A stretch of 64,000 nucleotides of DNA from Candidatus Altiarchaeota archaeon (lineage in GTDB: Archaea; Altiarchaeota; Altiarchaeia; IMC4; SCGC-AAA252-I15), in NCBI GenBank assembly GCA_043804895.1, contig JAZDIN010000025.1, forward strand, positions 36,764-100,763, in the 5' to 3' direction. Positions 3,557 to 44,555 of the stretch are shown here, one piece after another; within the stretch, counting starts at the first letter, position 1, and each line of letters starts with the position of its first letter. The notes beneath the pieces were generated by a model that did no database searches, had not been told where the DNA came from, and saw nothing but the letters and a program-made list of their open reading frames with translations. The position numbers were made by a program, and so were the translations under genes.

Positions 3557-3630
3557 TGCGACTGCCGGGATTTGAACCCAGGTCGCGAGATTGGCAACCT
3601 CGAGTGATAGCCAGACTACACTACAGTCGC
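3557..3630 (-). tRNA. tRNA-Gly (anticodon GCC)
   Basis: Manual cloverleaf fold: acceptor GCGACTG/CAGTCGC, D-arm GTGT-AGTCTGGCTA-TCAC, anticodon stem CGAGG/TCTCG with loop TTGCCAA (anticodon GCC), V-loop CGAC, T-arm CTGGG-TTCAAAT-CCCGG, discriminator A. No encoded CCA. An AT-rich TATA-like box lies upstream (3643-3670). Confidence 0.8.
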
Positions 3631-10849: not shown

Positions 10850-11955
10850 AGCTGCATAGTCTTTGCTGCTATACTATCCCAAGAATGCGGCAGAGCGCTC
10901 TTTCTGGCTTTCGCGCTCATCCTGCCTAGGAGGTCATCATCCAGCACGTGTCTGACCTTCTCTGCAATGTCCTTTCCCTCCCTCTCTATGAAGAATCCGT
11001 TCTCCCCCTCCCTTATCAAATCCTCAGTGCCGTTAACGAGGGTCGCAAGGACTGGAAGGCCTGATGCAGCCGCCTCGAGCGTGGCCATGCTAAACCCCTC
11101 ATATGCGGTCGGGAACACGAATAGGTCGGCTGATGCATAGTACTTCCTGGCTTCACTTGAGTGTCCTGTGAACACGACTCTATCACTGACGCCCAATTCA
11201 GCAGCGCGTCTCTCATAAGGTTGTCTTTTGTCGCCGCCGACTGCGACCAGTTTCACGTCCTTCGGCAGGTGTGGTAAGGCCTCGATTACGTGCCTCAGGC
11301 CCTTTCTCTTGAACTCCCATCCAACGAATAGTAGGACGATGTCGTTTTCATCGATTCCGTGCATTCTCCTGACGTCAGTCCTGTATAACTTCCTGTTCTC
11401 TGGTGTGAACTCCTCTATGTTGACACCGTTTGGTATCAGCCTAATGTACTCATCAGGGACCCCATAGTAATGTTGTACCTCCCTGAGGTTGCCCTTTGAC
11501 AAGGCAATCAACTTCTTAAAGTTCCTGTGCGTTAGGTTGTACTTCTCTATTTGTAAGACGATGTTTGACGCGGGCTCGAAGGTCTTCAGCACCCTATACC
11601 CGAAGCCCCTCTCCCTCTTGAACTGTTCGACCGCAGCCTTATGGCAGCTTGGCGCCTTAAGTATGTTCTGGTAAAGCGACTCAGCCCCCTGACTGTGTAT
11701 GATGTCGAATTTATGTTCCTTGTCGAGCTTCCTTGCGAACACCGTGTTCTTCACTGCATTGAGGCCGATTAGCATATAATACGGCCATCGTGGTATCGGG
11801 ATCTTGTGGAATGTCACGCCGTCTATGTCGTGTTTCTGCCATGTAGTCAGGACGTGGACTTCATTGTCTTTCGCGAACCTTTCAGCCAGTTCGACAGCGT
11901 ATTTCGCGACCGCGCCCTGCTTGAAAAAGCTTGCAGTCAGGAAAAGTATTTTCAC
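10828..11955 (-). CDS. GT4-family glycosyltransferase
   Basis: MKILFLTASFF... N-terminus; C-terminal YEGFSMATLEAAASGLPVLATLVNGTEDLIREGENGFF motif. Confidence 0.75.
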   Translation of the reverse strand: MKILFLTASFFKQGAVAKYAVELAERFAKDNEVHVLTTWQKHDIDGVTFHKIPIPRWPYYMLIGLNAVKNTVFARKLDKEHKFDIIHSQGAESLYQNILKAPSCHKAAVEQFKRERGFGYRVLKTFEPASNIVLQIEKYNLTHRNFKKLIALSKGNLREVQHYYGVPDEYIRLIPNGVNIEEFTPENRKLYRTDVRRMHGIDENDIVLLFVGWEFKRKGLRHVIEALPHLPKDVKLVAVGGDKRQPYERRAAELGVSDRVVFTGHSSEARKYYASADLFVFPTAYEGFSMATLEAAASGLPVLATLVNGTEDLIREGENGFFIEREGKDIAEKVRHVLDDDLLGRMSAKARKSALPHSWDSIAAKTMQLYEEVLE

Positions 11956-15172: not shown

Positions 15173-16234
15173 TTATTTTATGCCGCTGAAACCTATGTCG
15201 TCCCTGAAGTTCTTCCTCCCAATATCGTCCTCCCTCCTCCTGTTAAGCTTTAGTTTGGAGTATCCTTCCCCCTCCAACCAACCCCTAACCTCGCCTTCGG
15301 TGTGGAAGTGCTCGTACTCTGGGCTCCACCAATCGAAGGTGTCAGCCCACCGCTCTTCCGGGTAAGGCCTCTTTGAAATGAAGAAGAAAAGCCTTCCCAC
15401 CTGCAGCCTAAGCCATTCGTTACCTATACCCCTCACGAGCCCCCCCAGCGGAACCCCAACCCAAGAGAGCCTCCATAACATCCATATAGGCATCCGTGTA
15501 GTGAAGACCCTGATTACATTGTTTAAGAACATCGAAAGAGGACTCCTCTTACGGTAGACCCACACCGCTAGCAGGCCGCCTCTTTTCACCATCTTTGATA
15601 TGCATTTGAACGCGCCTTTCGGGTCGGGTGTGTGGTGTAACACACCAATGCTATAAACGAAGTCGAATGTACCCTCCCTAAGTGGGATGTTGAAGAGGTC
15701 GGCTTGGACGACGTGCACCCTCCCGACCCCTCGTGTATTCTCATAAGCGCTTTCAACTGCCTGGCTTAAGTCCACGGCCACGATCTCTGCCCCATGTTTG
15801 GCGGCTACTAGGCTGTATCTGCCGTAGCCGCATCCTCCATCCAGGCACAATTTTCCTTTTAGGAATTTCTCGTCAACCCCTGTCTTATCGAAGAATATGG
15901 GGCTTTCTTCCATTTCGTTTATAATTTTGTACTTGGTCCACTGGAATCCAAAGCTCTTGCTGGTGCTCTCCTTAAACTTCTTGAACTCCTGGATGTCTCT
16001 ATCGGATACTATTCCCTCCGGTAGTTTGTCTCTGTATCTCTCAGCAAAGGAAGGATGTTCCTTTAGGGTGTTGGGGAGAATTCTTGGAATCCCTCCGATA
16101 ATGGGGTACCAGTTTCCGCAATTGCATGTGAGTAGCCCGTCGACAATCTCCTCCTTGTTATACAAAAATGGCGTGCACTTGAAATCTCCTTTGCAACTTG
16201 GGCAGGCCAAGAAATCAAGCAACCTACGGTCCAT
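15173..16234 (-). CDS. Trm112-like zinc-ribbon domain fused to a class I SAM-dependent methyltransferase (type 11)
   Basis: MDRRLLDFLACPSCKGDFKC...LTCNCGNWYPIIGGIPR is a Trm112/DUF343 start. LDGGCGYGRYS...VAVDLS is SAM-binding motif I. The start was set at MDRR (16234) with a TATA-like TTATATTATATA upstream; the 16357 extension overlaps asnB-2. Confidence 0.6.
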   Translation of the reverse strand: MDRRLLDFLACPSCKGDFKCTPFLYNKEEIVDGLLTCNCGNWYPIIGGIPRILPNTLKEHPSFAERYRDKLPEGIVSDRDIQEFKKFKESTSKSFGFQWTKYKIINEMEESPIFFDKTGVDEKFLKGKLCLDGGCGYGRYSLVAAKHGAEIVAVDLSQAVESAYENTRGVGRVHVVQADLFNIPLREGTFDFVYSIGVLHHTPDPKGAFKCISKMVKRGGLLAVWVYRKRSPLSMFLNNVIRVFTTRMPIWMLWRLSWVGVPLGGLVRGIGNEWLRLQVGRLFFFISKRPYPEERWADTFDWWSPEYEHFHTEGEVRGWLEGEGYSKLKLNRRREDDIGRKNFRDDIGFSGIK

Positions 16235-16269
16235 ACTAACTACATGTATTGTGTATATAATATAAGCCT

Positions 16270-18144
16270 CTACAGGCTCCCTGGTGGCATTCCATCGATG
16301 TACATCCTCTGCCACAGTTCCAGTGTGATGAGGGCCCATATCTGGTGCCCCCTCCACAGGTTTTTTGGTTTTCCGAGGAGTGCTTGGACCTTATCGGGCC
16401 TAAGTATCCCTCGTCTTCTCACATTTTCCTTTGATAATATGTCATGCGCAAACTCGCGCAGTTCGTTGAGCATCCAGTGGTGCATCGGCACCCGGAATCC
16501 CTGCTTTTTGCGTGCAAGTATCTCCTTAGGTAGCCTATCCCTCATAAGCCTCTTGAGTATGTACTTGTCTGTGGAGCCCCTCAGCTTCATATGGGCTGGA
16601 AGCGACATGGTGTATTCGAGGAGTTTGTGGTCTAGGAGGGGTACGCGGCCCTCTATCGCCCACGCCATGCTAGTCTTATCAAGTTTCATGAGTAGGTCCT
16701 CTGGGACCCACGTCTTCAAGTCAACGTATTGTAAGCGGCTGAGGAACGTCGGCATGTTCCGTGCCCTGAAGCACTGGCGTACTGTGCTGAGGGAGTCGAC
16801 GCTGGCGTTCGCCTTCTGGAACTCCCCAGTATAATACTCACCCCTCTCCTCCTCGTCTAGGACGTGGCCCTGACCCAAGTAGACCTTTTCCTCGTCTGCA
16901 GCTGAGATATACCTTAAGTATCTTTTACCTCGTGTGAATCCGGGGATATTTTTTATCGCGTATGGTATGACATTATCCTTCATCACAGGGGGCAGGATAT
17001 TGCGCATGCGGTCGCCTACGTTGAGTAGTTTGTATGTTCTGTAGCCTGCGAATGCCTCGTCTCCGCCTTCGCCCGTGAGTACTACCGTCACCTTCCTTTT
17101 CGCCCGTTCAGACAGGAAATATGTCGGCACAGCCGCAGGGTCGCCGATGGGTTCATCCAGATGCCATATCACCAATGGAAGGGACTTCAGCGCATGATGG
17201 GAGTCGATAATGATCTCATGATGGTCTGTTCTATAGTGGTCTGCCACAGTCTTCGCGTATTTCACCTCATCAACGTCCTCGTACCCGAATCCTACGCTAA
17301 ACGTCTTCACAGGTTCAGGCATCATCGACGTCATCATGTCAACCATTGTGCTTGAGTCAAGGCCGCCTGAGAGATAGGCGCCGAGTGACACGTCGCTCAT
17401 CAGGCGCATCCTCACGCAATCCGAAAGTAGCGCATCAAGTTCTTTAAGGCACTGGCTTTCGCTGACATCATGCAGTTGAGCCTTAAGGTCCCAGTATTGG
17501 GTGACGTTGGTCTTGCCACCCTCGCGCACTAGCATGTGGCCTGGCTGTAGTTTCATCACCCCCTCAAGTGCAGTTTGCATTCCTGGGACATACTGGAGGG
17601 TGAGGTAATAGTGGATTGCCTTCTTGTTCAACGCCGGATTTAAGCCATCATACTCTAAAAGCGCCTTCACTTCCGAGGCGAACAGGAACGCTCCATCCTT
17701 TTCAAAGTAGTAGACTGGTTTTATGCCTAACCTGTCTCTTGCTAGGACGAGCCTCTTCTTGGACGCATCCCAGAGGGCGATTGCGAACATCCCCCTCAGG
17801 TGTTCGACAAAAAGTGGACCATGTTCCTCATACAGGTGCACGATGACCTCCGTGTCGGTGTTTGTCCTGAACTTGTGGCCTTCAGCCTCGAGTTCTCTCC
17901 TCAGTTCAAGGTAGTTGTAAATCTCCCCATTGTATATCGTGACCACATCACCTTCCTCGTTGAATATCGGCTGCTTCCCTGTTGAAAGGTCTATGATGGA
18001 AAGGCGCAGGTGGCCGAGCATCACGTCTGAATCATGGTATTCGCCGCAGTCATCTGGGCCCCTATGGTGGACTGTATCCATCATATCCCTGAGCAGTCCC
18101 CTGTCCTCAAAACCCATTATCCCCACAATACCACACACCGTCAA
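16270..18144 (-). CDS. asnB: asparagine synthetase B-type glutamine amidotransferase, copy 2
   Basis: MTVCGIVGIMG, SGGLDSS, 624 aa; a paralog of 11952..13847. Confidence 0.8.
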   Translation of the reverse strand: MTVCGIVGIMGFEDRGLLRDMMDTVHHRGPDDCGEYHDSDVMLGHLRLSIIDLSTGKQPIFNEEGDVVTIYNGEIYNYLELRRELEAEGHKFRTNTDTEVIVHLYEEHGPLFVEHLRGMFAIALWDASKKRLVLARDRLGIKPVYYFEKDGAFLFASEVKALLEYDGLNPALNKKAIHYYLTLQYVPGMQTALEGVMKLQPGHMLVREGGKTNVTQYWDLKAQLHDVSESQCLKELDALLSDCVRMRLMSDVSLGAYLSGGLDSSTMVDMMTSMMPEPVKTFSVGFGYEDVDEVKYAKTVADHYRTDHHEIIIDSHHALKSLPLVIWHLDEPIGDPAAVPTYFLSERAKRKVTVVLTGEGGDEAFAGYRTYKLLNVGDRMRNILPPVMKDNVIPYAIKNIPGFTRGKRYLRYISAADEEKVYLGQGHVLDEEERGEYYTGEFQKANASVDSLSTVRQCFRARNMPTFLSRLQYVDLKTWVPEDLLMKLDKTSMAWAIEGRVPLLDHKLLEYTMSLPAHMKLRGSTDKYILKRLMRDRLPKEILARKKQGFRVPMHHWMLNELREFAHDILSKENVRRRGILRPDKVQALLGKPKNLWRGHQIWALITLELWQRMYIDGMPPGSL

Positions 18145-19250: not shown

Positions 19251-19305
19251 CTTGGTTAACTATCCTCCGGATATTTTAAAAGGAGCGACTAAAGACTAAA
19301 CTGAC

Positions 19306-20082
19306 ATGAAAGTTGTTATACTCTGCGGTGGCCGCGGAACTCGGCTAAGGGAGGAGACAGAGTACAAGCCAAAGCCCCTGGTTGAGGTAGGCGGCAGGCC
19401 CCTACTCTGGCACCTAATGCACATCTATGCGAAATACGGGTTTAAAGAGTTTGTTCTGTGCCTCGGGTACAAGGGGAACTTGATCAAGGAGTATTTCCTT
19501 AATTACGATGCCATGAACAACGACTTCACAATACACCTTGGTGACCGGAAGGAGATTGCGGTGCACAGCATGCACCGCGAGCATGACTGGCGTGTAACCC
19601 TAGCTGACACCGACGAGGAGTCACTAACTGGCACAAGGATTAAGAAGATAGAAAAGTACATTGACAGCGACACGTTCATGTTAACATACGGAGATGGACT
19701 GGCAGACGTCGATATAAAAAAACTACTTGAATTCCACAAATCCCATGGGAAGATCGGGACCATCACTGGAGTGCACCCCTCATCACGCTTCGGTGAGATA
19801 CAAGCCGAGGGGGGCAGGGTATTGTCCTTCCACGAGAAACCAAGTTCATTCTCAGGGCTTATAAACGGCGGATTCTTCGTCTTCGATAAAAAGTTCTTCA
19901 GGTACCTAGACCTGGAAAAGAATCAAGCCCTAGAGGCAAAGCCCCTCGTTGAACTATCACGTGAGGGTGAGCTTATGGTCTTCAAGCATGAGGGGTTCTG
20001 GCAATGCATGGACACCTACCGGGAGGTCGAGATTCTGAACAACTTATGGAACTCTGGAAAACCTCCCTGGAAAATCTGGTGA
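19306..20082 (+). CDS. rfbF: glucose-1-phosphate cytidylyltransferase (RfbF/DdhA)
   Basis: MKVVILCGGRGTRLREETEYKPKPLVEVGGRPLLWHLMHIYAKYGFKEFVLCLGYKGNLIKEYFLNY is the characteristic RfbF N-terminus; 258 aa. Confidence 0.8.
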   Translation: MKVVILCGGRGTRLREETEYKPKPLVEVGGRPLLWHLMHIYAKYGFKEFVLCLGYKGNLIKEYFLNYDAMNNDFTIHLGDRKEIAVHSMHREHDWRVTLADTDEESLTGTRIKKIEKYIDSDTFMLTYGDGLADVDIKKLLEFHKSHGKIGTITGVHPSSRFGEIQAEGGRVLSFHEKPSSFSGLINGGFFVFDKKFFRYLDLEKNQALEAKPLVELSREGELMVFKHEGFWQCMDTYREVEILNNLWNSGKPPWKIW

Positions 20083-20135
20083 AATGCCTTTAACTTCTCT
20101 TTAAAACCCTTAACTGTTAAATAATTTAAAGTAAA

Positions 20136-21134
20136 ATGGATGACAGGTTTTGGAGGGACAGAAATGTCTTCGTGACCGGTTGCACTGGCTTCCTCGGGTC
20201 GTGGCTTACGAAAGCATTGGTTGATCGAGGGGCTAATGTCACCGGACTTATTCGTGACTGGATTCCAAAATCCAACCTGGTACTGACCGGATACAACGAA
20301 AAGGTTAGTGTCGTGAGGGGAGCGGTCGAGGATTATCCACTACTGGAAAGAACGCTGAACGAATATGAAATAGATACAGTATTCCACCTGGCAGCTCAGA
20401 CCATAGTAACAATAGCTAATAGGGGCCCGTTATCGACATTCGAGACCAACATAAAAGGAAGCTGGAGCCTGCTCGAGGCCAGTAGGAGGGCTCCTCTTGT
20501 CAGGCGCATCATATGCGCCTCAAGCGACAAGGCATACGGAAACCAGATACGGCTTCCCTACAGCGAGGACACACCTCTTGAGGGCAGGCATCCGTACGAC
20601 GTCTCCAAGAGTTGCGAAGACCTAATCGCTAGATCATACTTCGAGACCTACGGCCTCCCGGTCTGCGTCACAAGGTGCGGGAACTTCTTTGGCGGCGGGG
20701 ACTTGAATTTCAACAGGATCGTGCCCGGGACGATACGTTCTGTAAACTACGGTGAGAGGCCACTGATTCGAAGCGATGGAAAATCCACTAGGGATTACAT
20801 ATACATAGAGGACGCTGTAGAAGCCTATATGCTCTTGGCTGAGCGGATGGGCGACAAAAAAATCCACGGCGAGGCGTTAAACTTCAGCAACGAGAAGCCG
20901 ATGACAGTCAAAGGGCTGGTGGAAAGGATAATCAAGATTATGGGAAGTGACCTCAGACCGGTAATACTGGACGAGGCATCCAACGAGATACGGCACCAGT
21001 ACCTTTCTTCAAAAAAGGCGAGGAAAATTCTGAATTGGAAGCCACACTACGACTTTGAGGCGGGTATGAAAAGGACGATAGAATGGTATGTCGGATTCTT
21101 GAACGATGGGGTAGTCATCGGGGAGAAACACTGA
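20136..21134 (+). CDS. rfbG: CDP-glucose 4,6-dehydratase (RfbG/DdhB)
   Basis: [20 protein letters not shown], the SDR YxxxK region ...[11 protein letters not shown]..., about 330 aa; it lies adjacent to rfbF. Confidence 0.75.
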
Positions 21135-21213
21135 TGGACGAATGACTGTCCTCGCACGAAGACAACCCCCGGGAAGAATATTAAGGGATAATATACAAGT
21201 GTTGTGAAAGAAG

Positions 21214-22434
21214 ATGATTAAAGTTAAAAGGCGGGAGACGTGTCGCATCTGTGGTTGCCATGACATGCGTAAGGTAATTAATTTTCCTGAATGCCCCCTA
21301 GTTGAGGATTTCAGGACAAAAAAGGATGTGGGTGGTGAATTCCTCTATCCTCTAACCATTTACGTGTGCGAAAGATGTAAGCAGATACAGACACTACACG
21401 ATGTGGATGTGAGCGGCTACTATAAGGGTTTCATATACTCCGTCGCAAGTTCGCCTTTCGCCAGACAGTTCATGAAGAATTTAGCAGGCTCACTCTTTGA
21501 GAGATACAACCTGAAGAAGGGAGCGTCCGTCCTTGAGATAGGCAGCGGTGACGGTTTCCAGTTGTCTTGCTTCCAAGACATTGGGGCTAGGGTGTACGGT
21601 ATAGAACCCTCCAAGCCTCTTGTTGATATAAGCTTGGAAAGGGGGGTCCCAGTCATACAAGCGCTTTTCTCCAATGATGTCCTTGACAGAATACCCAAAG
21701 AACTCTTCCCATTTCAGGTGGTCCTTCTGACCTACACATTCGACCACCTTACTGACCCCTTATCCTTCCTTGTCTCAATAAGAGATTTCATAGACCAGAA
21801 GAAGGGTCTTCTGGTACTTGAGGTGCACGATCTTCCGAAGATAATGGAACGAAGAGAGTACTGCCTTTTCGGTCACGAGCACCCATGCTATTTCAGCGTT
21901 GACACAATACGCAACGTCCTTGTTGAGGGTGGGTTCGAGCTTGTTGACTGCGAACTTCTACCTGAAAGCCAAAGACGCGGGAACTCGTTGCTTGTCGTGG
22001 CAAAGCCTGCCGCTGACCCACAAAAAACCCCGAAACACCTAATCTATCCCAAATTACAACGACTAGAAGCCTATGATGCGTTCGGGCATCAGGTGGAGAA
22101 TAGCCTGTACAATTTTAGAAACCAGGTAATCGAAGATAAAAAAATAGGCACAACGTTCGCTGGATATGGGGCTGGAGGAAGGGGGGTTCTTACCCTGGCG
22201 ATGACGGGTCTTAAGTCAGATGATATAGGATACCTATGCGACAAGAATGAGAAATTCTACGGGTACTACACTCCCAAGTCACATGTGCCGATAGTGCCGC
22301 TTGAACACGCGCTTGAGAACATGGTCGATAAAATGATCGTGTTTTCATACGGATACATGAAGGACATATCACAAGACATGTCAGGATTTACAAAAAGCGG
22401 GGGCATTCTGATACCCCTGCTGGAGCTACTCTAA
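21214..22434 (+). CDS. NDP-hexose C-methyltransferase (TylC3/EryBIII-type: N-terminal Zn ribbon + class I MTase + C-terminal C-methyltransferase domain)
   Basis: CRICGCHDM...CERCKQIQ zinc ribbon; LEIGSGDGFQ SAM motif; a roughly 150-aa C-terminal domain typical of sugar C-3 methyltransferases. Confidence 0.6.
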   Translation: MIKVKRRETCRICGCHDMRKVINFPECPLVEDFRTKKDVGGEFLYPLTIYVCERCKQIQTLHDVDVSGYYKGFIYSVASSPFARQFMKNLAGSLFERYNLKKGASVLEIGSGDGFQLSCFQDIGARVYGIEPSKPLVDISLERGVPVIQALFSNDVLDRIPKELFPFQVVLLTYTFDHLTDPLSFLVSIRDFIDQKKGLLVLEVHDLPKIMERREYCLFGHEHPCYFSVDTIRNVLVEGGFELVDCELLPESQRRGNSLLVVAKPAADPQKTPKHLIYPKLQRLEAYDAFGHQVENSLYNFRNQVIEDKKIGTTFAGYGAGGRGVLTLAMTGLKSDDIGYLCDKNEKFYGYYTPKSHVPIVPLEHALENMVDKMIVFSYGYMKDISQDMSGFTKSGGILIPLLELL

Positions 22435-22435
22435 C

Positions 22436-23365
22436 ATGCGTGCTCTGATCAGCGGCGGAACAGGTTTTGTGGGCTCTCATCTGGTTCGCCGACTGGTCGG
22501 TGACGGATGGGATGTCTCGATTCTGGTCAGACGGGAAAGCGATACTTGGAGGATAAAGGATGTCCTGCGTGACGTTGCCGTCGTATATGGGGACCTGAGG
22601 AAACTAAGCGACTGCGAAGAGAAGATAAAATCGCTGAAACCTGAAGCACTCTTCCATCTTGCATGGCATGGCGCGGGCTCTAACAAGGATGCTAACAACA
22701 TTGGACAGGTGTTCGACAACATCGATGGGAGCCTTAAGCTTGTGAAGGCTTGCGGTGAAACTGGATGCAGCTGCATGGTTGGGCTAGGTTCGGTCCTTGA
22801 GTACGGTAACTACAGCATCCCCGTCAAAGAGGATGGTATAGCCACCCCAAAGACGCTATACGGAACAGCCAAATATGCAACAGGAGTTATCGCAGAGCGT
22901 TTATGTGCGCAATACGATATGAGATTCTCCTGGCTTAGGCTATTCTGGTCATACGGCCCAGCTGACATTGAGACCCGTATGATACCCTACGTGATAACGA
23001 GACTCCTTAAGGGTGAGACCCCCTCTCTGACTGAGGGGAGGCAGAAGTGGGACTACATCTATATTGACGACGCTGTGAACGCAGTGATTTCTGCAGCGGA
23101 AAATCAGAAGGCAAATGGATTCTTCAATCTCGGCTCTGGACAGGCTTATACAGTACGTCACGTCGCGGAAAAGGCAAGGGATCTCATTAACCCGAATCTG
23201 AAGCTTGGTTTGGGAAAGATACCCTACGCTCCCGGCCAGATTATGCACCTTGAGGCTGATATAAACTCCCTACGAACCGCGACAGGATGGAGTCCAAAAG
23301 TTGAGCTTGCCGATGGTTTGGCATCGACAATCTCATGGTATAAAAAACATATGGTGCGTTCATGA
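22436..23365 (+). CDS. NAD(P)-dependent SDR epimerase/reductase (CDP-sugar 4-reductase/epimerase, RfbS/RfbJ-like)
   Basis: MRALISGGTGFVGSHLVRRL Rossmann motif; YGTAKYATG (YxxxK); 309 aa. Confidence 0.6.
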   Translation: MRALISGGTGFVGSHLVRRLVGDGWDVSILVRRESDTWRIKDVLRDVAVVYGDLRKLSDCEEKIKSLKPEALFHLAWHGAGSNKDANNIGQVFDNIDGSLKLVKACGETGCSCMVGLGSVLEYGNYSIPVKEDGIATPKTLYGTAKYATGVIAERLCAQYDMRFSWLRLFWSYGPADIETRMIPYVITRLLKGETPSLTEGRQKWDYIYIDDAVNAVISAAENQKANGFFNLGSGQAYTVRHVAEKARDLINPNLKLGLGKIPYAPGQIMHLEADINSLRTATGWSPKVELADGLASTISWYKKHMVRS

Positions 23366-24219
23366 GCCTTAAGAGGAAGTCGTGTGACTCAAAAGCACTA
23401 GCCACGAGAGTGCGCGCGCATGCGCTCAACATGACACATAACGCCCGCGCCTCACACATCGGTTCGTCCCTTTCAGTCGCTGACATACTTACGGTACTTT
23501 ACAGCAGAATACTCCGCATCGACCCGGCCAGACCAGACTGGCCCATGCGTGACAGGTTCATACTAAGCAAGGGACATGCTGCCGCAGCACTTTACGCAGT
23601 GCTTTCAGAGTCAGGATTCCTTCAGAAAAACTCCCTGAAGACCTACTGCCAGGATGACTCGGCGCTTGGCGGCCACGCATCAATGAAGGTTTCGGGTGTA
23701 GACTTTTCAACTGGTTCACTTGGACACGGTCTTGCGATAGGATCTGGGATGGCTCTTGCAGCCAAGCGGGATCGCTGCAGATACAGGGTTTTCGTTCTTT
23801 TAAGCGATGGCGAATGTAATGAGGGTTCAATCTGGGAGGCAGCAATGTTCGCTGCACACCACAGGTTGGATAATCTGACCGCTATTATAGACTATAACAA
23901 ACTGCAGGCGTTTGGCCGAGTTGAGGATGTACTTGACCTTGAGCCTCTCGCTGAGAAATGGAAGTCCTTCGGATGGTCAACCCAAGAGATTGATGGCCAC
24001 AATCACGTTAAGATAGAAGGCGCTCTGAGTCGCGTTCCTCTCAAATCAGGTAAACCAAGCTGTATAATAGCGCACACAGTTAAAGGCAAGGGTGTCTCTT
24101 TCATGGAAGACCAACTTGACTGGCATTACAAGTCGCCTGACATAAAACAACTAACCTCAGCACTCATCGAGCTTGGGGTACCCAATAATGATCTCCCACC
24201 TTGGGGACAACGAAGATGA
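23362..24219 (+). CDS. transketolase, N-terminal (thiamine-diphosphate-binding) subunit
   Basis: HIGSSLSVADILTVLY, GHAAAALYA, ...LSDGECNEGSIWEAAMFAAHH...: the split-transketolase N subunit. Confidence 0.8.
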   Translation: MSLKRKSCDSKALATRVRAHALNMTHNARASHIGSSLSVADILTVLYSRILRIDPARPDWPMRDRFILSKGHAAAALYAVLSESGFLQKNSLKTYCQDDSALGGHASMKVSGVDFSTGSLGHGLAIGSGMALAAKRDRCRYRVFVLLSDGECNEGSIWEAAMFAAHHRLDNLTAIIDYNKLQAFGRVEDVLDLEPLAEKWKSFGWSTQEIDGHNHVKIEGALSRVPLKSGKPSCIIAHTVKGKGVSFMEDQLDWHYKSPDIKQLTSALIELGVPNNDLPPWGQRR

Positions 24220-24225
24220 AAAAAC

Positions 24226-25446
24226 ATGAACCAAAAACTTAACTCAAAAAAGGCTACAAGAGTGTACATGTGGCAGAATGGGCTTTGCATAACCTACTTG
24301 TTGATTTTCAGAAAGTTCCAGGAATTCCTTAAGGCGAATGGCTGGGAAATAGTCAACAAACCCGCCGATGCCGAGTGGATAGTGACCGGGGCATGCGGCA
24401 GCTTCCTACCAGTGATAGACGACTACCTCAGGCACATCGAGTCCTACCTCCGCGGAGGTAAGAAGGTCTTAGTATACGGCTGCCTGCCAAAAATTACTCC
24501 GGAAAGATACCATGAGTACGAAAAAAGGGCGAATCTTCTAATACCTCCGGAAAGGCCAGAGCTTATAGAGGAACTTATCCCAAATGCTAGGGTCAGATGG
24601 TCTGACATCCCAAACAATGGAGAGTTCAGGAGAGAAGACTACCGGAACTACGACCCCACGAGGAAGTATGTCCTAATACAATACGGTTGTAGCATAGAGT
24701 GCACATACTGCCCTCACGTGAAGGGTATAGGCAAGAACGTCAGCAGGTCTAAAAAGGAAGTGATAAATGAGGTCAATTCTATGCTAAACAACGGGGCCAA
24801 GACCATATTCCTTGAAGGCAGAGACATAGGGTCCTGGGGTATCGATCTCAAACAGCAAGACTCCTTCCCCAGCATTCTAGAGGAAATACTAACTCTGCCA
24901 GGCAACTTCGACGTCTACGTAAACCAATTTGGAGCTAACTGGGCAGTACACTACGGGAAAAGGCTATTCGAACTTTTTGAGAACCCGAAGATAAGGGACG
25001 TGCACATACCCATTCAGACGACAAGTGAACGGCTGTTGACGCTCATGGGACGTAACCCAAATGTTAAAAAACTCAGCCCACTCCTTAAGTCTTTGAGGGT
25101 GAACAGACCCAACCTCATGCTCAGGACCGACCTGATAATAGGTTTCCCGACCGAGACAGAGGAGGAACTCAATGACACCCTAGAGTTCGTAAAGGAACAT
25201 TTTGATGAGGTCGCATGTCACGGTCTCGAGCTTCACCCTAACACCAAACTCATGGAGATGAAGCTGCCCTTCTTCGACCAATCCTTAATCGAAGAGCGCG
25301 TAGAACGCGCGAGAAAATACCTTGAGGAAAGCGGTGTGGTGGCCCACCGCGGAGGCCAGGTCTTCAAGACTATGGTCAAGCGTGAGAGGGTGATGAAAAA
25401 GAAGAGGGGGAGGACACATCTGTCAAGGGGTGGCATTAAGAAATGA
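24226..25446 (+). CDS. radical SAM enzyme, MiaB/RimO-like (MTTase-type N-terminal domain + CxxxCxxC core)
   Basis: YGCSIECTYCPH is a radical-SAM cluster motif. An N-terminal region of about 130 aa with conserved Cys resembles the MTTase N-domain. No TRAM domain. Confidence 0.5.
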   Translation: MNQKLNSKKATRVYMWQNGLCITYLLIFRKFQEFLKANGWEIVNKPADAEWIVTGACGSFLPVIDDYLRHIESYLRGGKKVLVYGCLPKITPERYHEYEKRANLLIPPERPELIEELIPNARVRWSDIPNNGEFRREDYRNYDPTRKYVLIQYGCSIECTYCPHVKGIGKNVSRSKKEVINEVNSMLNNGAKTIFLEGRDIGSWGIDLKQQDSFPSILEEILTLPGNFDVYVNQFGANWAVHYGKRLFELFENPKIRDVHIPIQTTSERLLTLMGRNPNVKKLSPLLKSLRVNRPNLMLRTDLIIGFPTETEEELNDTLEFVKEHFDEVACHGLELHPNTKLMEMKLPFFDQSLIEERVERARKYLEESGVVAHRGGQVFKTMVKRERVMKKKRGRTHLSRGGIKK

Positions 25447-26357
25447 GGCCCACATTTGCCAACACTCTTTACGACCTAGCTAAACGAGACAAAGGGGTCT
25501 ACCTACTCACATCGGACGTAGGCTACTCAGTCTTCGAGAGGTTCATCGACGACCTACCCAAACAATACGTCAACGTCGGCATAGCTGAAGCCAATATGAT
25601 TGGCATTTCCGCGGGCCTCGCGTCTTCTGGAAAGAAGGTTTTCGCCTACTCAATGTCGCATTTCCTAACCCTCCGGTGTTACGAGCAGATAAAACTTGAC
25701 CTATGTTACCCAAAGCTCAACGTCAAGTTAATAGGTTCAGGAGGCGGTTTGACTTACGGCTCGCAGGGGCCAACTCACCAGTCGAATGAAGACATCTCGA
25801 TAATGCGTTCCCTACCCAACATGTGCGTCATTTGCCCAGGAGATCCTATTGAGACAGGGTATGCAGTGAGAGAGGCGTTGAAACGAGGCGGACCTGTCTA
25901 CATAAGGCTCAGTAAAAAAGATCCGATTGTGCACGCATCTGATGACATAGACTTCCGGATTGGTAAGGGCATCATCCTGAATAATGGTTCAGACCTTACA
26001 CTCATATCTACTGGCAACATGCTAGCTACGGCAAAGGAAGTGTGCGAGAGGTTTCAAGCCGATGGAAAAAAGGTGTGTCTTGTGAGCATGCACACTATCA
26101 AACCTCTTGACATTAGGTTGGTCAAGGAACTTGCTGAGACAGGCAGACCGATGTTTTCGCTTGAAGAGCACAGCTTAGTGGGTGGATTGGGAGGTGCAAT
26201 CTCAGAAGTTCTTGCGGAACTAGACTGCAAGGTCCCATTCCGGCGGATAGCCCTACCAGATGGTTTCTGCAACGTTATCGGAAGCCAAACCCACCTGCGG
26301 AGGAGTTACGGGCTAGACCCGGATAGTGTTTACAGGACTATCAGAGATATCCTATAA
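25443..26357 (+). CDS. transketolase, C-terminal (pyrimidine-binding/C-terminal) subunit
   Basis: FIDDLPKQYVNVGIAEANMIGISAGLA... is a transketolase C-subunit signature. Confidence 0.8.
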   Translation: MRPTFANTLYDLAKRDKGVYLLTSDVGYSVFERFIDDLPKQYVNVGIAEANMIGISAGLASSGKKVFAYSMSHFLTLRCYEQIKLDLCYPKLNVKLIGSGGGLTYGSQGPTHQSNEDISIMRSLPNMCVICPGDPIETGYAVREALKRGGPVYIRLSKKDPIVHASDDIDFRIGKGIILNNGSDLTLISTGNMLATAKEVCERFQADGKKVCLVSMHTIKPLDIRLVKELAETGRPMFSLEEHSLVGGLGGAISEVLAELDCKVPFRRIALPDGFCNVIGSQTHLRRSYGLDPDSVYRTIRDIL

Positions 26358-26393
26358 TCAAAAGTTATTAAGGGGGGGCACAGAATCTATACC

Positions 26394-27116
26394 ATGCCAG
26401 AAAGTGGATTCAAAGGTCCGATATTCTCGATAATCATCCCCTCATACAACGAAGAGGAAACATTGCCAATATCGATTCCCGATTTATTAAAGCATCTTGG
26501 AGAGGCGGAAATATCAGATTTTGAGCTCTTGATAGTAGATAATGGCTCCTTTGACAAAACAGGTGACGTAATACGCGAGCTAATGGGAAAAGACAGGAGG
26601 ATAAGGTCCGTAAGGGTTCCTTTCAACCAGGGGTGGGGGTTAGGCGTGATGTCAGGGTGCTCTCAGGCGTTGGGCAGGTACGTCGTGTATATGTGCGCGG
26701 ACCTGCAGGTGCCTCACAAAGCCCTGGTTGAGGTGTGCGAGAGGATTGCCAGGGAAGACTCTGACAAAGTTATCGTCAAGGTGAATAGGGTTGTTAGGGA
26801 TGACGGGGTAGCCAGGGGGATATCATCCAACCTCTACAACCTTTTTATTAACCTCATGTTCCTTGGGGTTTCACCAGACGTTAACGGCACACCCAAGGCA
26901 CTTTCCCTGAAGTTGTGGAGGCAGCTTGACGTGAGGAACAGGGGTTCGTTTACTGACACTGAGGTCTTGATTAAGGCTAAGAGGGCTAATGCGAGGATTA
27001 TCGAGATAGAAACAGTTTCAGTTAAGAGGATATGTGGTTCGTCCACTGTTAGGATATCCCAACTTCCTTTTGAGATGTTTTTTGACGCCATCAAATTCAG
27101 GCTAAACATTACCTAG
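26394..27116 (+). CDS. GT2-family glycosyltransferase (Dpm1-like)
   Basis: FSIIIPSYNEEETLP...LLIVDNGSFDKTGDV is a GT-A DxD-type N-terminus. Confidence 0.7.
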   Translation: MPESGFKGPIFSIIIPSYNEEETLPISIPDLLKHLGEAEISDFELLIVDNGSFDKTGDVIRELMGKDRRIRSVRVPFNQGWGLGVMSGCSQALGRYVVYMCADLQVPHKALVEVCERIAREDSDKVIVKVNRVVRDDGVARGISSNLYNLFINLMFLGVSPDVNGTPKALSLKLWRQLDVRNRGSFTDTEVLIKAKRANARIIEIETVSVKRICGSSTVRISQLPFEMFFDAIKFRLNIT

Positions 27117-27142
27117 ATGTCATAGACTGACTTGATGTCAAT

Positions 27143-29002
27143 GTGATTGGTGTGGGCGTTAATATGGTAAGGAAAATCAATGTAACGGATCATTGGCTTG
27201 TACTGGTAGTATTCCTTTTGTCTATAGTCTACATTACGGGATACGATTTCTCACTCAACTCAAATGACCCGAATGAGCAATTACCCCTTATCAAGAGGGT
27301 ATTGGATAAGGAGTATCTCACCAATGACTGGTATGTAAACAGCTCTCAGGCATTTTCTATACGGTCCTACTACACATACGTGGTCGCTTTTTTCCCCGAA
27401 TTCATCGGGCTGGCTAATGTGTACTTCATACTCTACTTACTGTCCTATTCACTCACAATCTATGCTTCCTATCGCATATCCAAAATGATGCTAAAGGACA
27501 ACCTTGCAACACTCCTAGTCATGTTCATGGTAATCTTCGGACCAAATGCTTCCCTTGGCAGCTTCAGACTAGTGGAATGGGAGTTCATACCAAGGTCGCT
27601 AGCTAACCCCCTGATACTCTTAGGGATATATTTCATCCTCAATGGTAGTTTGCCCGTTTCCGGATTCCTATTCGGCCTTGCAAGCATATTCCACCCGTCT
27701 ATGGGCATACTAATGGGTGTGGTGTTCTTGACATACCTACTCTTTAATGCGCGAAGTATCGGGCTTCGTGAAGTCCTAAAATCATCGGCATGTTTTATAG
27801 TGGTCAGCCTCTTCGTCATAATCCCAACAATACTCCTGGGCTCATCGGTTTCAGACCCGGAGGCCATTGCCATATTTACTAAGGTGGTTAGTCCTCACAT
27901 CTTCTTCCCCACATACTTCGGGTTAAATCAGTACCTAACGTTCATGTCACTTGCAGCTTTGGTCGCACTCGCAATAAAATATGGATCTAAGCTTGATAAT
28001 ACTAAGGCCGCATTTTCTTTGATTGCACTTATTTTAATGCTTGCATTAACTGGCGCATTTTTCACGGAAATCGTTCCATTGCCTTGGATTTACATATTCA
28101 ACCTCTTCAGGCCAATGCAGTTCGCCTACCTATTTGGATTCATATTTGTCTCTGGTTTTCTGGCGCATGAAATTAATCGCTCGACAAGTCCGGTCAATCG
28201 GATAATCCCCCTCGCCGTTGCATCTTCATTTGCAGCATCTTATGTGATGTCTGCCACCACGATACTCTACCTTGTGTATGTTAAGTACCTCAGGAACAGG
28301 ATAGAATCATTAGCCCCGAAAAAAGCATTGGTTGGAATAGTAGCTGTGTTAGTTCTAGCTACTGCATCCATTACCATATACCTGTTCCATCTAGAAGGGT
28401 CGTCCTTATATTTAAATTTGTCAAAGACATTGCGTCTTTTGGGCATATTTGTCTTTTTAGCATCTGCCTCTTCAAAGGTTATCGTATCGTACTCTAAACG
28501 TGTAATGGATGGGTACATAGAACATTTAATATCGATATTCATCGCCATGTTAGTACTATTCTCCGTATACCAGTCTGGTGGTCTAAGTACTGAAAGAATG
28601 CCGCGCGATCCAATGACAGCCAACCTTTATCAATGGGTAAAGGTCAATACACCCAAGGATGCGGTTTTTATAATACCCCCACACCTATATACATTCCGCA
28701 TTGGAGCTTCTAGAGCGGTTTTCGCCGATTCATTTTCAAGGCCTTTCACTGATGAAGGTATTATCGACTGGAGCAGCAGAATGAAGCAGTTTGCAAAAAA
28801 CTTCGACACGAGGTTAGGCTATGACCTCTCCAATGACTTGAAAGCTGGTTACAACTCAACAAACACCTTAGAATTTGAGCGTATTGGAAAAACGTACGGT
28901 GCGTCCTACGTACTTACTGAAAAACCGAAAGTGCTCGAAATTGATCCGGTATTTGAGAATGAAAAATACGTACTCTACAATCTAAGCCAATATTCAAACT
29001 AA
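27143..29002 (+). CDS. large polytopic membrane protein, putative GT-C-type glycosyltransferase / glycan polymerase
   Basis: 619 aa with at least 12 predicted TM helices and a C-terminal soluble domain. No WWDYG motif, so it is not called AglB. GC is visibly lower than in neighbouring genes. Confidence 0.3.
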   Translation: MIGVGVNMVRKINVTDHWLVLVVFLLSIVYITGYDFSLNSNDPNEQLPLIKRVLDKEYLTNDWYVNSSQAFSIRSYYTYVVAFFPEFIGLANVYFILYLLSYSLTIYASYRISKMMLKDNLATLLVMFMVIFGPNASLGSFRLVEWEFIPRSLANPLILLGIYFILNGSLPVSGFLFGLASIFHPSMGILMGVVFLTYLLFNARSIGLREVLKSSACFIVVSLFVIIPTILLGSSVSDPEAIAIFTKVVSPHIFFPTYFGLNQYLTFMSLAALVALAIKYGSKLDNTKAAFSLIALILMLALTGAFFTEIVPLPWIYIFNLFRPMQFAYLFGFIFVSGFLAHEINRSTSPVNRIIPLAVASSFAASYVMSATTILYLVYVKYLRNRIESLAPKKALVGIVAVLVLATASITIYLFHLEGSSLYLNLSKTLRLLGIFVFLASASSKVIVSYSKRVMDGYIEHLISIFIAMLVLFSVYQSGGLSTERMPRDPMTANLYQWVKVNTPKDAVFIIPPHLYTFRIGASRAVFADSFSRPFTDEGIIDWSSRMKQFAKNFDTRLGYDLSNDLKAGYNSTNTLEFERIGKTYGASYVLTEKPKVLEIDPVFENEKYVLYNLSQYSN

Positions 29003-30775
29003 TCTGTAGACGCTGAATCTCTCGTTCTCCCAGACGAGTTCACCAACTCCTCCCAATTTTTCCTTGTCGACATCCCTCAGACTACCATCCGACTGGGTGA
29101 AAATATAATAACTGACGTTCTGTGCCCTGGCAGTCTCAACTATCCTGTCCCACCCCTCATACGGCGGTATAACCGCCAGTAGTCCTGTGTAGAAGTTGAC
29201 GCGTTGACCGTCCTCTGACATTATGATACTCCCTTCAGGCACTGTCTCTCCAATCATATTCATCGCCTTAAGGTCAGGCCTTTCAGATATTCTTACGCCT
29301 GAGAGTAATGCAGTCTGAGCGACCATAGAAAGTACAATAACCGTTAAGAGTACACCCCTCCTCCCCACAATATATGCTGCTGCATATGCTAAAAATATTG
29401 GGGTTAAGGGGCTTAGGAAGTCCACGCTAACTCCGTCCGACTTCGGGTAGCCAGTCCACAATGGGCCCACAAAGCTGGAGAATGCTAGAACAAAAAACAG
29501 TAATGTGCCACTCACATGCCTTAGGTTGGATAGTATGTAAAGGATGGCGGCCGTGAAGGCCAATAAGCTAACTAGGTTCATAACAGAATTGCTCATAGTC
29601 CAAATAAACCCATACTCCTGCATCTTGTTCGGTGGCGGGACGTACGTTGTCACCATATTTATCAGCCGATACATCACGGCCTTCAATACCCCGAGAACAC
29701 CGCCCCCCAACCTTTCAAGATAGGATGTTGGTGTTGGGGGGGTTAGTGACTGGTATTCATCCCACTTCGTCATGAACGGCACATACCTTGCCGTCGTATA
29801 CAACGGATTGCCAAACAGGGTATAGTTTCTGACAAACCACGGTGTCAACACAACAATGAAAATCAAAGCAGCCATAATATTCTCCCTCGCGAATATCTGA
29901 TACTTATTCCTTATGGCCTGATAAACGACCACTGCAATTATAAACCATACTGCCGTATAGTGCGTCAGATAAGCGAATGCGGCAGATAGTGCCGCATACG
30001 CACTGAAACCCCTACCCCTCACTGTGAAATAAACCATCATCGTTACGAAAAAAGAAACCATTACTCTCGGTTCAAGCTCTATAGAACGCGAGATAAGGAA
30101 AAAATTCACAGAAACCAGCAATCCACTTATCCACCCTACCTCATGATTGAACAGCCTAGTTGCCAGAAGATAAATACCTAATACCAGGAAAACCCCGAAG
30201 AATACATTAATTGAGACTGCTGAGGCGTAGTCTACTCCATTAAACACCATGCCAAGAGCGTGCAGAAAATCCTGAAGTGGTGGCCTATAATTGCCAGGAA
30301 ACGGGAATCTAGTGTATGGTGTCCAGTAATTGTCTATAACATCAGTTGTGAACCATTCAGCGGTGAGGAAGCTTCTAGCATAAGAATAGTGGGCGTATGA
30401 GTCGCCGACAACGGGATTGGGGTTTAGTTCAAACAAAGCTACTCTCAAGGCCAATGCCAATACCAGTACCACAATAAACTTATCTAATCCACTGCTAACT
30501 CCTGCCGCCTCCCGACGTTTGAGCCCCTCTGGCCTCCACTTTCTTGCGGACAGATACACTACTACTGTGGCAAATGTAACCGCTCCCAACAGTGCATCGA
30601 ACCCAAGCTGGACCCCAATGGCGTGAAGTACAAGGGCGCATGAACCGTACAAGAGGGTCGAAGCCAAGACTGCAGCACAGAACCGTTCGACAGCGTCAAG
30701 CCTCCTGTCAAGGCCAGACAGAACGTAACCGGGGGCATAAAAGAACACCACTGTCCTTAGAAATTCTATTATCAT
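28994..30775 (-). CDS. GT-C-family glycosyltransferase (ArnT/PMT-like polyprenyl-phosphate-sugar-dependent transferase)
   Basis: Polytopic membrane protein with DSYAHYSYARSF in the first loop (ArnT/PMT-like acidic motif). The start was chosen at MIIEFLRTVVFF (ATG 30775) with an AT-rich promoter upstream. Confidence 0.45.
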   Translation of the reverse strand: MIIEFLRTVVFFYAPGYVLSGLDRRLDAVERFCAAVLASTLLYGSCALVLHAIGVQLGFDALLGAVTFATVVVYLSARKWRPEGLKRREAAGVSSGLDKFIVVLVLALALRVALFELNPNPVVGDSYAHYSYARSFLTAEWFTTDVIDNYWTPYTRFPFPGNYRPPLQDFLHALGMVFNGVDYASAVSINVFFGVFLVLGIYLLATRLFNHEVGWISGLLVSVNFFLISRSIELEPRVMVSFFVTMMVYFTVRGRGFSAYAALSAAFAYLTHYTAVWFIIAVVVYQAIRNKYQIFARENIMAALIFIVVLTPWFVRNYTLFGNPLYTTARYVPFMTKWDEYQSLTPPTPTSYLERLGGGVLGVLKAVMYRLINMVTTYVPPPNKMQEYGFIWTMSNSVMNLVSLLAFTAAILYILSNLRHVSGTLLFFVLAFSSFVGPLWTGYPKSDGVSVDFLSPLTPIFLAYAAAYIVGRRGVLLTVIVLSMVAQTALLSGVRISERPDLKAMNMIGETVPEGSIIMSEDGQRVNFYTGLLAVIPPYEGWDRIVETARAQNVSYYIFTQSDGSLRDVDKEKLGGVGELVWENERFSVYRLV

Positions 30776-30855
30776 TGGTCTGCTAAGACTATTGTTAAGT
30801 AATATATTTATCCTCAATCCAACGGTTTTTAGCATACACTGACATAGCATAAACC

Positions 30856-31635
30856 ATGGGTTCACCCGCAGGTAACGGCTGCCTAGTTGACCGAATCTTG
30901 AAGAAATGCGGGGCATTGGGCATTGTGGACTTGTGGGCTTCCACAGACAAGAAGTACATAGACCATCACGAGAATTTCCTGAACCTCACAGAGGAGGGGT
31001 ACTCCGATGACCTCATAAAACATATGCGTGATGTCAGCGGACTTATTGGTGTGGACATAGGCTCCGGTGGCGGCGTGGTTGCAAATAGGCTGGCATCTTT
31101 GGGCGCGTCAGTCAATGTGATGGACATATCATTAAACGCTGTGAGGCATGCTACGTCATCTGGTCGCGTTCTTGGGGTTCAGGCTAATGTAGAGCATATG
31201 CCCTACAAGGATGATGCGTTCGATTTCTGTGTCTGCACGGATGTTGTGGAGCATGTGGTTGAATATCATCAGCTAGTTAGTGAGATACAAAGGGTATTAA
31301 AACGAAGTGGTGTGGCTTATCTAACAGTACCAAACGCGTACAGTTGCAAGAACTTACTTCTTGATCTCATATTTCCTATCCTCACAGGAGTATCTCGAAA
31401 GGTCACTGGCCACAAGCCTCAACTACCCTCCCGGGGCCATATAAACCTCTTCAGCAGGAAGAGCTTTGCAACCTTTTTGTCCGAGAGTGGTTTCATCATA
31501 GAGGCTGTTGAGGGCAGTAAGGTCAAGGATATCTCCAGGTACCGTCTTGTGGTGAATCCTCTATCAACTCTAGCTGGCTTTATCATACCCTCGATGGTGG
31601 TTGATGAGCTCATGTTCATGGTAACACCCGAATGA
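30856..31635 (+). CDS. class I SAM-dependent methyltransferase (type 11)
   Basis: VDIGSGGGVVANRL...VMDIS, FDFCVCTDVVEHV. Confidence 0.65.
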   Translation: MGSPAGNGCLVDRILKKCGALGIVDLWASTDKKYIDHHENFLNLTEEGYSDDLIKHMRDVSGLIGVDIGSGGGVVANRLASLGASVNVMDISLNAVRHATSSGRVLGVQANVEHMPYKDDAFDFCVCTDVVEHVVEYHQLVSEIQRVLKRSGVAYLTVPNAYSCKNLLLDLIFPILTGVSRKVTGHKPQLPSRGHINLFSRKSFATFLSESGFIIEAVEGSKVKDISRYRLVVNPLSTLAGFIIPSMVVDELMFMVTPE

Positions 31636-33526: not shown

Positions 33527-33543
33527 ATTAGGGCTAATATTAT

Positions 33544-34485: not shown

Positions 34486-34572
34486 ACTACGTACTTATCT
34501 AATGCGAGCCTTTATAAGACCGCTTTATCCACATCCTAATTAACACGCCCTCAAATAACTACCTGAAGTTAG

Positions 34573-36616: not shown

Positions 36617-36620
36617 CTGA

Positions 36621-38036: not shown

Positions 38037-38080
38037 ACCGGTGCTACTGGAATATTATATGTCAAACAATATGTCTTAAG

Positions 38081-44463: not shown

Positions 44464-44555
44464 TGCTGTTCATCTCATGTTTGCCAGCATTTATCCCCTA
44501 CCCTTGCTGTCGTACTCTATGTATGGCTTTATCCCCTTAAAGCGGTCGCATACTC

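Follow-up and report, generated by a model that had tools for sequence, protein, structure and literature searches.

A 64-kb stretch of DNA from contig JAZDIN010000025.1 of a Candidatus Altiarchaeota archaeon (hereafter the window) contains nine co-directional genes on the forward strand, at positions 19306-29002, which form a tightly packed single operon; the gaps between them range from -4 to 79 nt in the list of open reading frames (ORFs). The first four encode a glucose-1-phosphate cytidylyltransferase (RfbF), a CDP-glucose-type 4,6-dehydratase, a sugar C-methyltransferase dependent on S-adenosylmethionine (SAM) and an extended short-chain dehydrogenase/reductase (SDR). They are followed by the N-terminal (TKN) and C-terminal (TKC) halves of a split transketolase-like enzyme, a radical SAM gene inserted between these halves, a GT2 glycosyltransferase and a hydrophobic protein (Table 1). 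We see a slightly better than even chance that this archaeal operon builds and delivers a C-branched 6-deoxyhexose activated by cytidine diphosphate (CDP), with the four genes as its front end; the most likely product, as inferred from the gene content, would be a CDP-6-deoxyhexose that bears both a C-methyl group and a two-carbon branch. The initial annotation had treated the four genes as the complete unit and a CDP-linked C-methyl-6-deoxyhexose as its product. The unit proved to be larger, since the operon runs on to position 29002 with TKN, the radical SAM gene, TKC, the glycosyltransferase and the membrane protein. The product survives as a sound minimal prediction from the gene identities but probably not as the end product, given the transketolase pair in 50 of 55 related loci.

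Those loci are bacterial. A single-sequence scan of genomes with the methyltransferase gave no matches, and neither did an exact-sequence look-up, whereas an alignment-based scan with the same protein over one genome per GTDB species retrieved 80 loci, all bacterial and from more than 10 phyla. Cassettes were found in Verrucomicrobia, Planctomycetes, Acidobacteria, Actinobacteria, Paenibacillus, Clostridium, cyanobacteria, SAR11, SAR86, Omnitrophota and Saccharibacteria. Partner genes within 8 kb were counted in 55 loci that had been retrieved via the methyltransferase alone and in which it is flanked by 5 kb or more in both directions. TKN was present in 51 of these, TKC in 50, both halves in 50 (91%), RfbF in 49, the dehydratase in 50, the SDR in 51 and all five partners in 44; on these counts, RfbF and the dehydratase are no more frequent beside the methyltransferase than the two halves of the transketolase. 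Because both halves occur in 50 of the 55 loci, the split transketolase belongs to the core of the cassette, and for the same reason the end product is probably more than a C-methyl sugar. In individual metagenomic loci the gene order is RfbF, dehydratase, C-methyltransferase, SDR, a TylF-like or second methyltransferase in some cases, TKN and TKC homologues and a GT2 gene. The literature searched yielded nothing useful on a cassette of CDP-glucose genes, transketolase and C-methyltransferase.

The CDP-sugar front end

The four front genes lie exactly at the positions given in the initial annotation, and profile and PDB matches support their identities, with a score under the cut-off in the case of the dehydratase. 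RfbF scores 333.9 bits against the TIGR02623 equivalog, exceeding the cut-off of 300.25, and matches the Salmonella enzyme (PDB 1tzf) at 1.1e-85. The top family of the dehydratase is TIGR02622, CDP-glucose 4,6-dehydratase, at 217.6 bits (under the cut-off of 278.45), and its top PDB matches are the two solved CDP-glucose 4,6-dehydratases, 1wvg and 1rkx. It has a Ser-Asp-Lys triad in the sequence SSDKAYG, comparable with TSDKCYD in CDP-glucose dehydratases, whereas dTDP-glucose dehydratases have Thr-Asp-Glu at this place; the YxxxK motif (YDVSK) is also present, as is the N-terminal FW..VFVTG.TGF.GSWL, which it has in common with these two structures. Two dehydratase subtypes occupy the same slot of the bacterial cassettes, a short type with about 60% identity to that of the window and the canonical RfbG with about 32%, and both carry (S/T)-Asp-Lys. 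The CDP assignment made in the initial annotation, which specificity of the RfbF and RfbG homologues for dTDP or UDP would have contradicted, was not refuted by these comparisons.

The methyltransferase consists of a four-Cys zinc ribbon, a class I SAM domain and a C-terminal Methyltransf_14 domain. All three profiles exceed their gathering scores (PF08421, 50.7 bits; PF13489, 60.1; PF08484, 72.6), which upholds the earlier description of a three-domain C-methyltransferase, including the C-terminal domain on which that description depended. The protein aligns end to end with MtmC (PDB 4rv9, its best match at 1.9e-49 and 171.8 bits) and TcaB9, and over its full length with 5t64 and 5t6b, both deposited as 'Sugar 3-C-methyl transferase'. 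Across 22 homologues there is no variation in the zinc-ribbon residues C10, C13, C52 and C55, nor in H178 or E222-H223. The window enzyme and the TylC3/TcaB9/MtmC group (3ndi, 4rv9, 5t64) share the same three-domain build and zinc ribbon, but identity to this group is low and the CDP-sugar substrate is deduced from the genomic context, whereas the members with solved structures are known as enzymes of antibiotic biosynthesis that use dTDP-sugars. Methylation at C-3 is an assumption; C-5 methylases belong to the same TylC3-type family.

The SDR has GalE-like enzymes and the GDP-4-keto-6-deoxyhexose reductase 2pk3 among its PDB matches, with the GxxGxxG and YGTAK motifs intact; we take it to be a ketoreductase that would act on C-4 or on the carbonyl of a branch. 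A scan of every ORF of at least about 225 amino acids found no DegT/E1-type dehydrase (a 3-dehydrase dependent on pyridoxamine phosphate) and no E3-type gene in the window, as had been noted earlier for the 3-deoxygenation pair, and the window likewise has no YerE-type enzyme of the acetolactate synthase family (TPP_enzyme_N/M/C), which would use thiamine diphosphate (ThDP).

Table 1. Features of the operon and its borders in the window (aa, amino acids).
Feature	Position	Strand	Evidence
Divergent intergenic region, 55 nt	19251..19305	.	Palindromic TTTTAAAA at 19274-19281, direct sequence reading
RfbF, glucose-1-phosphate cytidylyltransferase, 258 aa	19306..20082	+	TIGR02623, PDB 1tzf
CDP-glucose-type 4,6-dehydratase, short subtype, 332 aa	20136..21134	+	TIGR02622, PDB 1wvg/1rkx
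TylC3/TcaB9/MtmC-type SAM-dependent sugar C-methyltransferase, 406 aa	21214..22434	+	PF08421, PF13489, PF08484
Extended SDR, 309 aa	22436..23365	+	PF01370, 148.4 bits
TKN, ThDP/PP-domain half of split transketolase-like enzyme, 285 aa	23362..24219	+	PF00456, 155.4 bits
TRAM-less MiaB/RimO-like two-cluster radical SAM enzyme, 406 aa	24226..25446	+	TIGR00089, AlphaFold2 model
TKC, Pyr and C-domain half of split transketolase-like enzyme, 304 aa	25443..26357	+	PF02779, PF02780
GT2 glycosyltransferase, polyprenyl-phosphate sugar synthase type, 240 aa	26394..27116	+	PF00535, 85.4 bits
Hydrophobic DUF6798 protein, 619 aa, last gene of the operon	27143..29002	+	PF20604, 57.3 bits
PMT_2 (GT-C type) membrane glycosyltransferase, convergent	28994..30916	-	PF13231, 38.2 bits

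The transketolase-like and radical SAM enzymes

TKN overlaps the stop codon of the SDR gene by 4 nt, and TKC overlaps that of the radical SAM gene by the same distance. For both halves the closest solved structure is the split transketolase of Carboxydothermus hydrogenoformans (TKN with 6yak, 1.5e-82; TKC with 6yaj, 2.1e-57). The TKN motifs ASH, SKGH, GH, STGSLGHG, SDGE.NEG...DYN and WHY and the TKC motif GIAE are invariant in 68-72 cassette homologues, and 71-72 cassette homologues of TKN share without exception both the His residues of catalysis and the ThDP motif (S/G)DGE..EG...DxN. TKC retains the cofactor-activating Glu plus two Arg residues, again invariant in the cassette homologues. 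At the acceptor site of TKC, GSGGGLTYGSQG stands where transketolases have ..H.G....GEDG. The window protein reads gsGggltyGSQGptHQ, compared with atHagltvGEDGasHQ in C. hydrogenoformans and gsHcgvsiGEDGpsQ in human transketolase, so that G.G....GSQG..HQ replaces the canonical ...H.G....GEDG..HQ of the Carboxydothermus enzyme; in the related ThDP enzyme DXS, Arg occupies the position of the acceptor His, and Glu/Ala-Asp that of the Glu-Asp pair (idRag..vGEDGpTH). The acceptor His and the Glu-Asp pair are lost in the window, in all 67 of 67 cassette copies, in 120 top database homologues and in 80 metagenomic relatives, and we therefore refer to the enzyme as transketolase-like and not as a transketolase. 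Judged by these residues, it looks catalytically competent but altered.

The radical SAM protein scores 176 bits against TIGR00089, under the cut-off of 251, and the profile scan found no match to PF01938 or PF18693, that is, no TRAM domain. Six Cys residues show 100% conservation across 69 relatives: three at the positions of an auxiliary cluster (21, 57 and 86) and three in the CxxxCxxC core (155, 159 and 162). The AlphaFold2 model has a mean predicted confidence (pLDDT) of 92.8, matches MtaB, MiaB and RimO with template modelling scores of 0.71-0.74 and ends in two C-terminal helices. The likeness to these three enzymes, which are the best structural matches, consists in the N-terminal three-Cys auxiliary-cluster domain and the CxxxCxxC core; the window protein differs from them in the missing TRAM domain, the helical C-terminus and the score below cut-off. 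Moreover, MiaB, RimO and MtaB modify tRNA or ribosomal protein, whereas the context of the window enzyme is the tailoring of nucleotide sugars.

This radical SAM family is small and rare: it comprises about 70 clusters at 90% identity, and when 1.84 billion proteins were searched exhaustively, only some 15 representatives at 50% identity scored above 175 bits. All seven genomic contexts examined are nucleotide-sugar clusters, and in five of the seven a ThDP enzyme lies beside the radical SAM gene. One of them (L093) repeats the order of the window, with methyltransferase, SDR, TKN and radical SAM gene in succession, and in another, from Oligoflexia (L041), the radical SAM gene adjoins the methyltransferase and the transketolase halves. 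In two further cases (L090 and L094) it is part of CDP-sugar clusters with a YerE-like enzyme, dependent on thiamine pyrophosphate (TPP), and a TylF-like methyltransferase, the first of which also holds an E1-like gene and the second an E3-like gene; in L091 and L092 it is found with other sugar-tailoring genes. A methyltransferase of the TylF or CmcI type is the usual neighbour of the family, and in one case the radical SAM protein has a methyltransferase of this CmcI/TylF type as its fusion partner.

The GT2 glycosyltransferase has ArnC (9bhc, 7e-11), GtrB (5ekp) and DPMS (5mlz) as its top PDB matches. In the bacterial cassettes a GT2 gene also follows the transketolase, but without orthology to that of the window. 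The DUF6798 protein that closes the operon is probably a multi-pass membrane protein, and by its position only it is a candidate for transfer at the outer face or for export. The convergent PMT_2 protein could use a sugar linked to lipid phosphate as its donor, its link to the operon being one of adjacency only.

Proposed pathway, precedents and competing explanations

By family assignment, RfbF would make CDP-glucose, the Ser-Asp-Lys-type dehydratase would convert it to CDP-4-keto-6-deoxyglucose, and the TylC3-type enzyme would methylate a carbon adjacent to the 4-keto group, either C-3 or C-5. Methylation at C-3 would fit the reported precedent of Bacillus cereus. The split transketolase-like enzyme may then attach two further carbons at the 4-keto position, much as YerE does; the unit transferred is probably of the glycolaldehyde type, since the enzyme has kept its His residues on the donor side. 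The SDR would reduce the remaining carbonyl, and the MiaB/RimO-like enzyme may modify the sugar or its side chain further. The finished sugar could be loaded onto polyprenyl (dolichyl) phosphate by the ArnC/GtrB-like GT2 enzyme and subsequently be transferred outside the cell by the membrane proteins.

Several known systems resemble parts of this scheme. The pathway of B. cereus to CDP-cereose and CDP-cillose reportedly consists of a CTP:glucose-1-phosphate cytidylyltransferase, a CDP-glucose 4,6-dehydratase, a C-methyltransferase and a 4-reductase. If this description is accurate, the window shares with it the four enzyme types and their logical order, CDP activation and the lack of 3-deoxygenation, and the predicted intermediate, CDP-3-C-methyl-4-keto-6-deoxyhexose, would be the same in both. 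The likeness is one of enzyme type, and there are differences: the dehydratase of the window is of the short subtype that falls under the TIGR02622 cut-off, the operon adds the split transketolase-like and radical SAM enzymes, and the host is an archaeon. Nor do the four genes of the window stand by themselves, as a pathway in which four suffice would have it, since TKN, the radical SAM gene and TKC overlap or adjoin the SDR gene. A genome survey lists the four-enzyme CDP-cereose/CDP-cillose route as characterised, citing Li et al. 2017 (J Biol Chem 292:7636), and reports its occurrence among 12,939 genomes as 81 and among 3,384 species as 22. The four genes alone are less novel than had been claimed, and all nine together represent a variant of a known pathway type. 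The initial annotation had called CDP-activated branched sugars essentially uncharted in archaea: the archaeal setting is real, with genes for GINS, RFC and a LonB-type ATPase on the contig, but the route has been characterised and its cassettes occur in many bacterial phyla.

In Yersinia pseudotuberculosis, YerE and YerF serve the formation of CDP-yersiniose A. YerE, a ThDP enzyme of the acetolactate synthase type, extends a CDP-6-deoxyhexose by a two-carbon unit at its C-4 keto group, after which the product is reduced (PMC12247030). YerE-like genes fill the equivalent place beside the radical SAM family in L090 and L094, but the likeness is functional only: YerE belongs to the acetolactate synthase (TPP_enzyme_N/M/C) family and uses pyruvate as donor, whereas the window enzyme is of the transketolase family, and the substrate of YerE is a 3,6-dideoxy sugar made by E1 and E3, both absent from the window. 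In the miharamycin and amipurimycin clusters, split-gene transketolases have been proposed to provide a keto sugar with a hydroxyacetyl unit (PMC12247030). These too combine a two-gene transketolase with sugar tailoring, but they are unproven and belong to the secondary metabolism of Streptomyces, whereas the pair described here is part of a cell-surface glycan cassette found in many phyla and one archaeon. A comparison with the virenose route of Coxiella was dropped, as the proposed starting compound of virenose synthesis is GDP-mannose and not a CDP-sugar.

The chief alternative is that the four genes constitute a self-contained pathway of the cereose/cillose type to CDP-3-C-methyl-6-deoxyhexose, with the SDR as its 4-ketoreductase, and that the transketolase-like and radical SAM enzymes serve a different sugar within the same glycan. 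We consider this unlikely, though it deserves to be taken seriously. The same four activities are reportedly sufficient in B. cereus, in a pathway that the survey lists as characterised; cassettes lacking the transketolase do exist; and the many other sugar-modifying genes of the surrounding island could make use of the extra enzymes. Against this alternative, the transketolase halves are as frequent beside the methyltransferase as RfbF (50 of 55 loci), and in the window they are translationally coupled to the SDR through the 4-nt overlaps. SDR orthologues co-occur with the transketolase in 46 of the 55 loci, and one cassette without transketolase (L003) uses a different SDR of 279 amino acids.

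A number of observations weigh against a role of the transketolase-like pair in sugar branching. To our knowledge, no split transketolase has been biochemically shown to act on a nucleotide keto-sugar, and the review that discusses the miharamycin and amipurimycin enzymes describes the branching role of split transketolases on keto sugars as still pending (PMC12247030). Gene linkage is correlation only. Three cassettes (L003, L013 and L017) lack the transketolase, and the four-gene core can therefore stand alone; a fourth (L087, 7882-8178) has only a Transketolase_C fragment of 98 amino acids and no working transketolase, which suggests that its pair has decayed. The pair, furthermore, retains the phosphate-binding Arg and Ser of true transketolases, and these residues would fit ordinary sugar-phosphate substrates equally well.

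The altered acceptor site was considered as a possible signature of sugar branching and was dropped after a reciprocal scan, in which metagenomes were searched via the transketolase half and 80 loci were obtained (L095-L174), 27 of them with adequate flanks. An RfbF homologue was present in 6 of the 27 and a weak methyltransferase homologue in one, although some gene of the nucleotide-sugar type was found in 17. All 80 loci carry the variant acceptor motif. In one of them the variant half adjoins a DegT aminotransferase in a locus of the capsule type (L121, 9001-9936), and in another it lies in a non-sugar setting with Glu/Leu dehydrogenase, URO-D-like and MTTB-like genes (L134, 9001-9924). 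Shared by 80 of 80 loci in such mixed contexts, the motif is the mark of a broad, uncharacterised clade and not of sugar branching as such, since only some of the members have sugar genes as neighbours. It sets the enzyme apart from standard transketolases but is no proof of branching.

A bolder version of the C-branching scheme holds that the split transketolase is neofunctionalised and adds a two-carbon branch to the C-methylated CDP-4-keto sugar and that the radical SAM enzyme modifies an unactivated carbon, possibly by methylthiolation, to give a doubly branched, perhaps sulfur-bearing and undescribed surface sugar. This version, which includes the notion that the cassette is widespread in uncultured bacteria, SAR11 among them, and was borrowed by the Altiarchaeota archaeon, is tentative and on the whole rather improbable.

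It is very unlikely that the split transketolase belongs to ordinary pentose phosphate metabolism, for instance as a source of sedoheptulose 7-phosphate for the heptose-nucleotide genes of the island, and that its placement in the operon is due to chance. Such a role would accord with the heptose-pathway-like genes at 3662-4966 and 7129-8139 and the transaldolase at 48747-49487, with the conserved phosphate-binding Arg and Ser, and with an active split transketolase as the closest solved structure. It is difficult to reconcile with the presence of the same pair inside the cassette in more than 10 bacterial phyla, with the loss of the His and Glu-Asp that true transketolases have at the acceptor site and with the insertion of the radical SAM gene between the halves. 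Bacteria that carry such cassettes would normally be expected to have a full-length housekeeping transketolase as well.

Should the transketolase-like pair indeed act on a CDP-keto sugar, as in the reading that we favour, it would be the first enzyme of the transketolase family shown to branch a nucleotide sugar. A product would then be defined for a cassette of abundant but poorly studied SAR11, Verrucomicrobia, Planctomycetes, Acidobacteria and Paenibacillus, and the radical SAM family would extend chemistry of the MiaB/RimO type from RNA and protein to sugars. Two enzyme families that are still uncharacterised become open to testing through this operon. As the locus joins a CDP branched-sugar route of bacterial type to an apparent archaeal step of delivery by dolichyl phosphate, it bears on the construction of the cell surface in Altiarchaeota and on the movement of glycan genes between domains.

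Archaeal setting and surrounding glycan genes

The window contains archaeal marker genes, namely those for GINS51, the RFC small subunit and a LonB-type ATPase, and its GC content stays between 0.44 and 0.54 throughout, without a step at the operon. Database entries from a Candidatus Altiarchaeota metagenome-assembled genome, on a contig of 150,761 bp, match the methyltransferase, the radical SAM protein and a transketolase half at 100% identity. The closest homologues of the methyltransferase are 45-56% identical, and all those with a taxon label are bacterial. For the cassette proteins in general the best homologues are 45-66% identical; apart from the entries of this metagenome-assembled genome, the close homologues with a taxon label are bacterial except for one transketolase half from the class Micrarchaeia. 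Because the close relatives are bacterial, this Altiarchaeota genome probably acquired the cassette horizontally from bacteria, whereas the identities of only 45-66% argue against a recent insertion of known bacterial DNA.

The operon is separated from a divergent GT4 gene by the short intergenic region listed in Table 1. Its palindrome TTTTAAAA is 24 nt from the GT4 start codon on the minus strand (19250) and 25 nt from the ATG of RfbF (19306), and is a possible candidate for a shared archaeal TATA element. A TATA box shared at this site would suit two divergent transcripts with very short leaders or none. The bacterial affinity of the cassette might be attributed to bacterial DNA misjoined to an archaeal contig, the archaeal setting then being an artefact of assembly or binning, but this is scarcely credible in view of the archaeal genes in the window, the even GC content, the TATA-like element at archaeal spacing upstream of the operon and the modest identity of the best homologues.

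The operon is embedded in a larger island of glycan genes. Just upstream, on the minus strand, there are two asparagine-synthase-like amidotransferases (11952-13847 and 16270-18144) and a Trm112-fused methyltransferase (15173-16357); AsnB homologues with 29-37% identity also flank seven of the bacterial cassettes (L003, L004, L015, L017, L028, L030 and L046). The heptose-nucleotide pathway-like genes comprise a sugar-1-phosphate nucleotidyltransferase fused to a GmhB-type phosphatase (3662-4966, minus strand) and an HddA-like GHMP kinase that scores under its family cut-off (7129-8139, plus strand). The transaldolase (48747-49487, plus strand) could supply ketose donors, and a phosphoglucomutase/phosphomannomutase (55874-57199, minus strand) glucose 1-phosphate. 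A second block of unusual glycan genes, at 32402-47305, contains three B12-binding radical SAM enzymes (36621-38036, 38812-40251 and 43078-44463), a SPASM radical SAM enzyme (34573-35637) and an LPG_synthase_TM protein (40194-41201), together with several SDRs, one of them HpnA-like, and methyltransferase and GT2 genes. At the left edge of the island are a Cas4/Csa1-like nuclease gene (1382-2161, plus strand) and a tRNA gene (3557-3630, minus strand).

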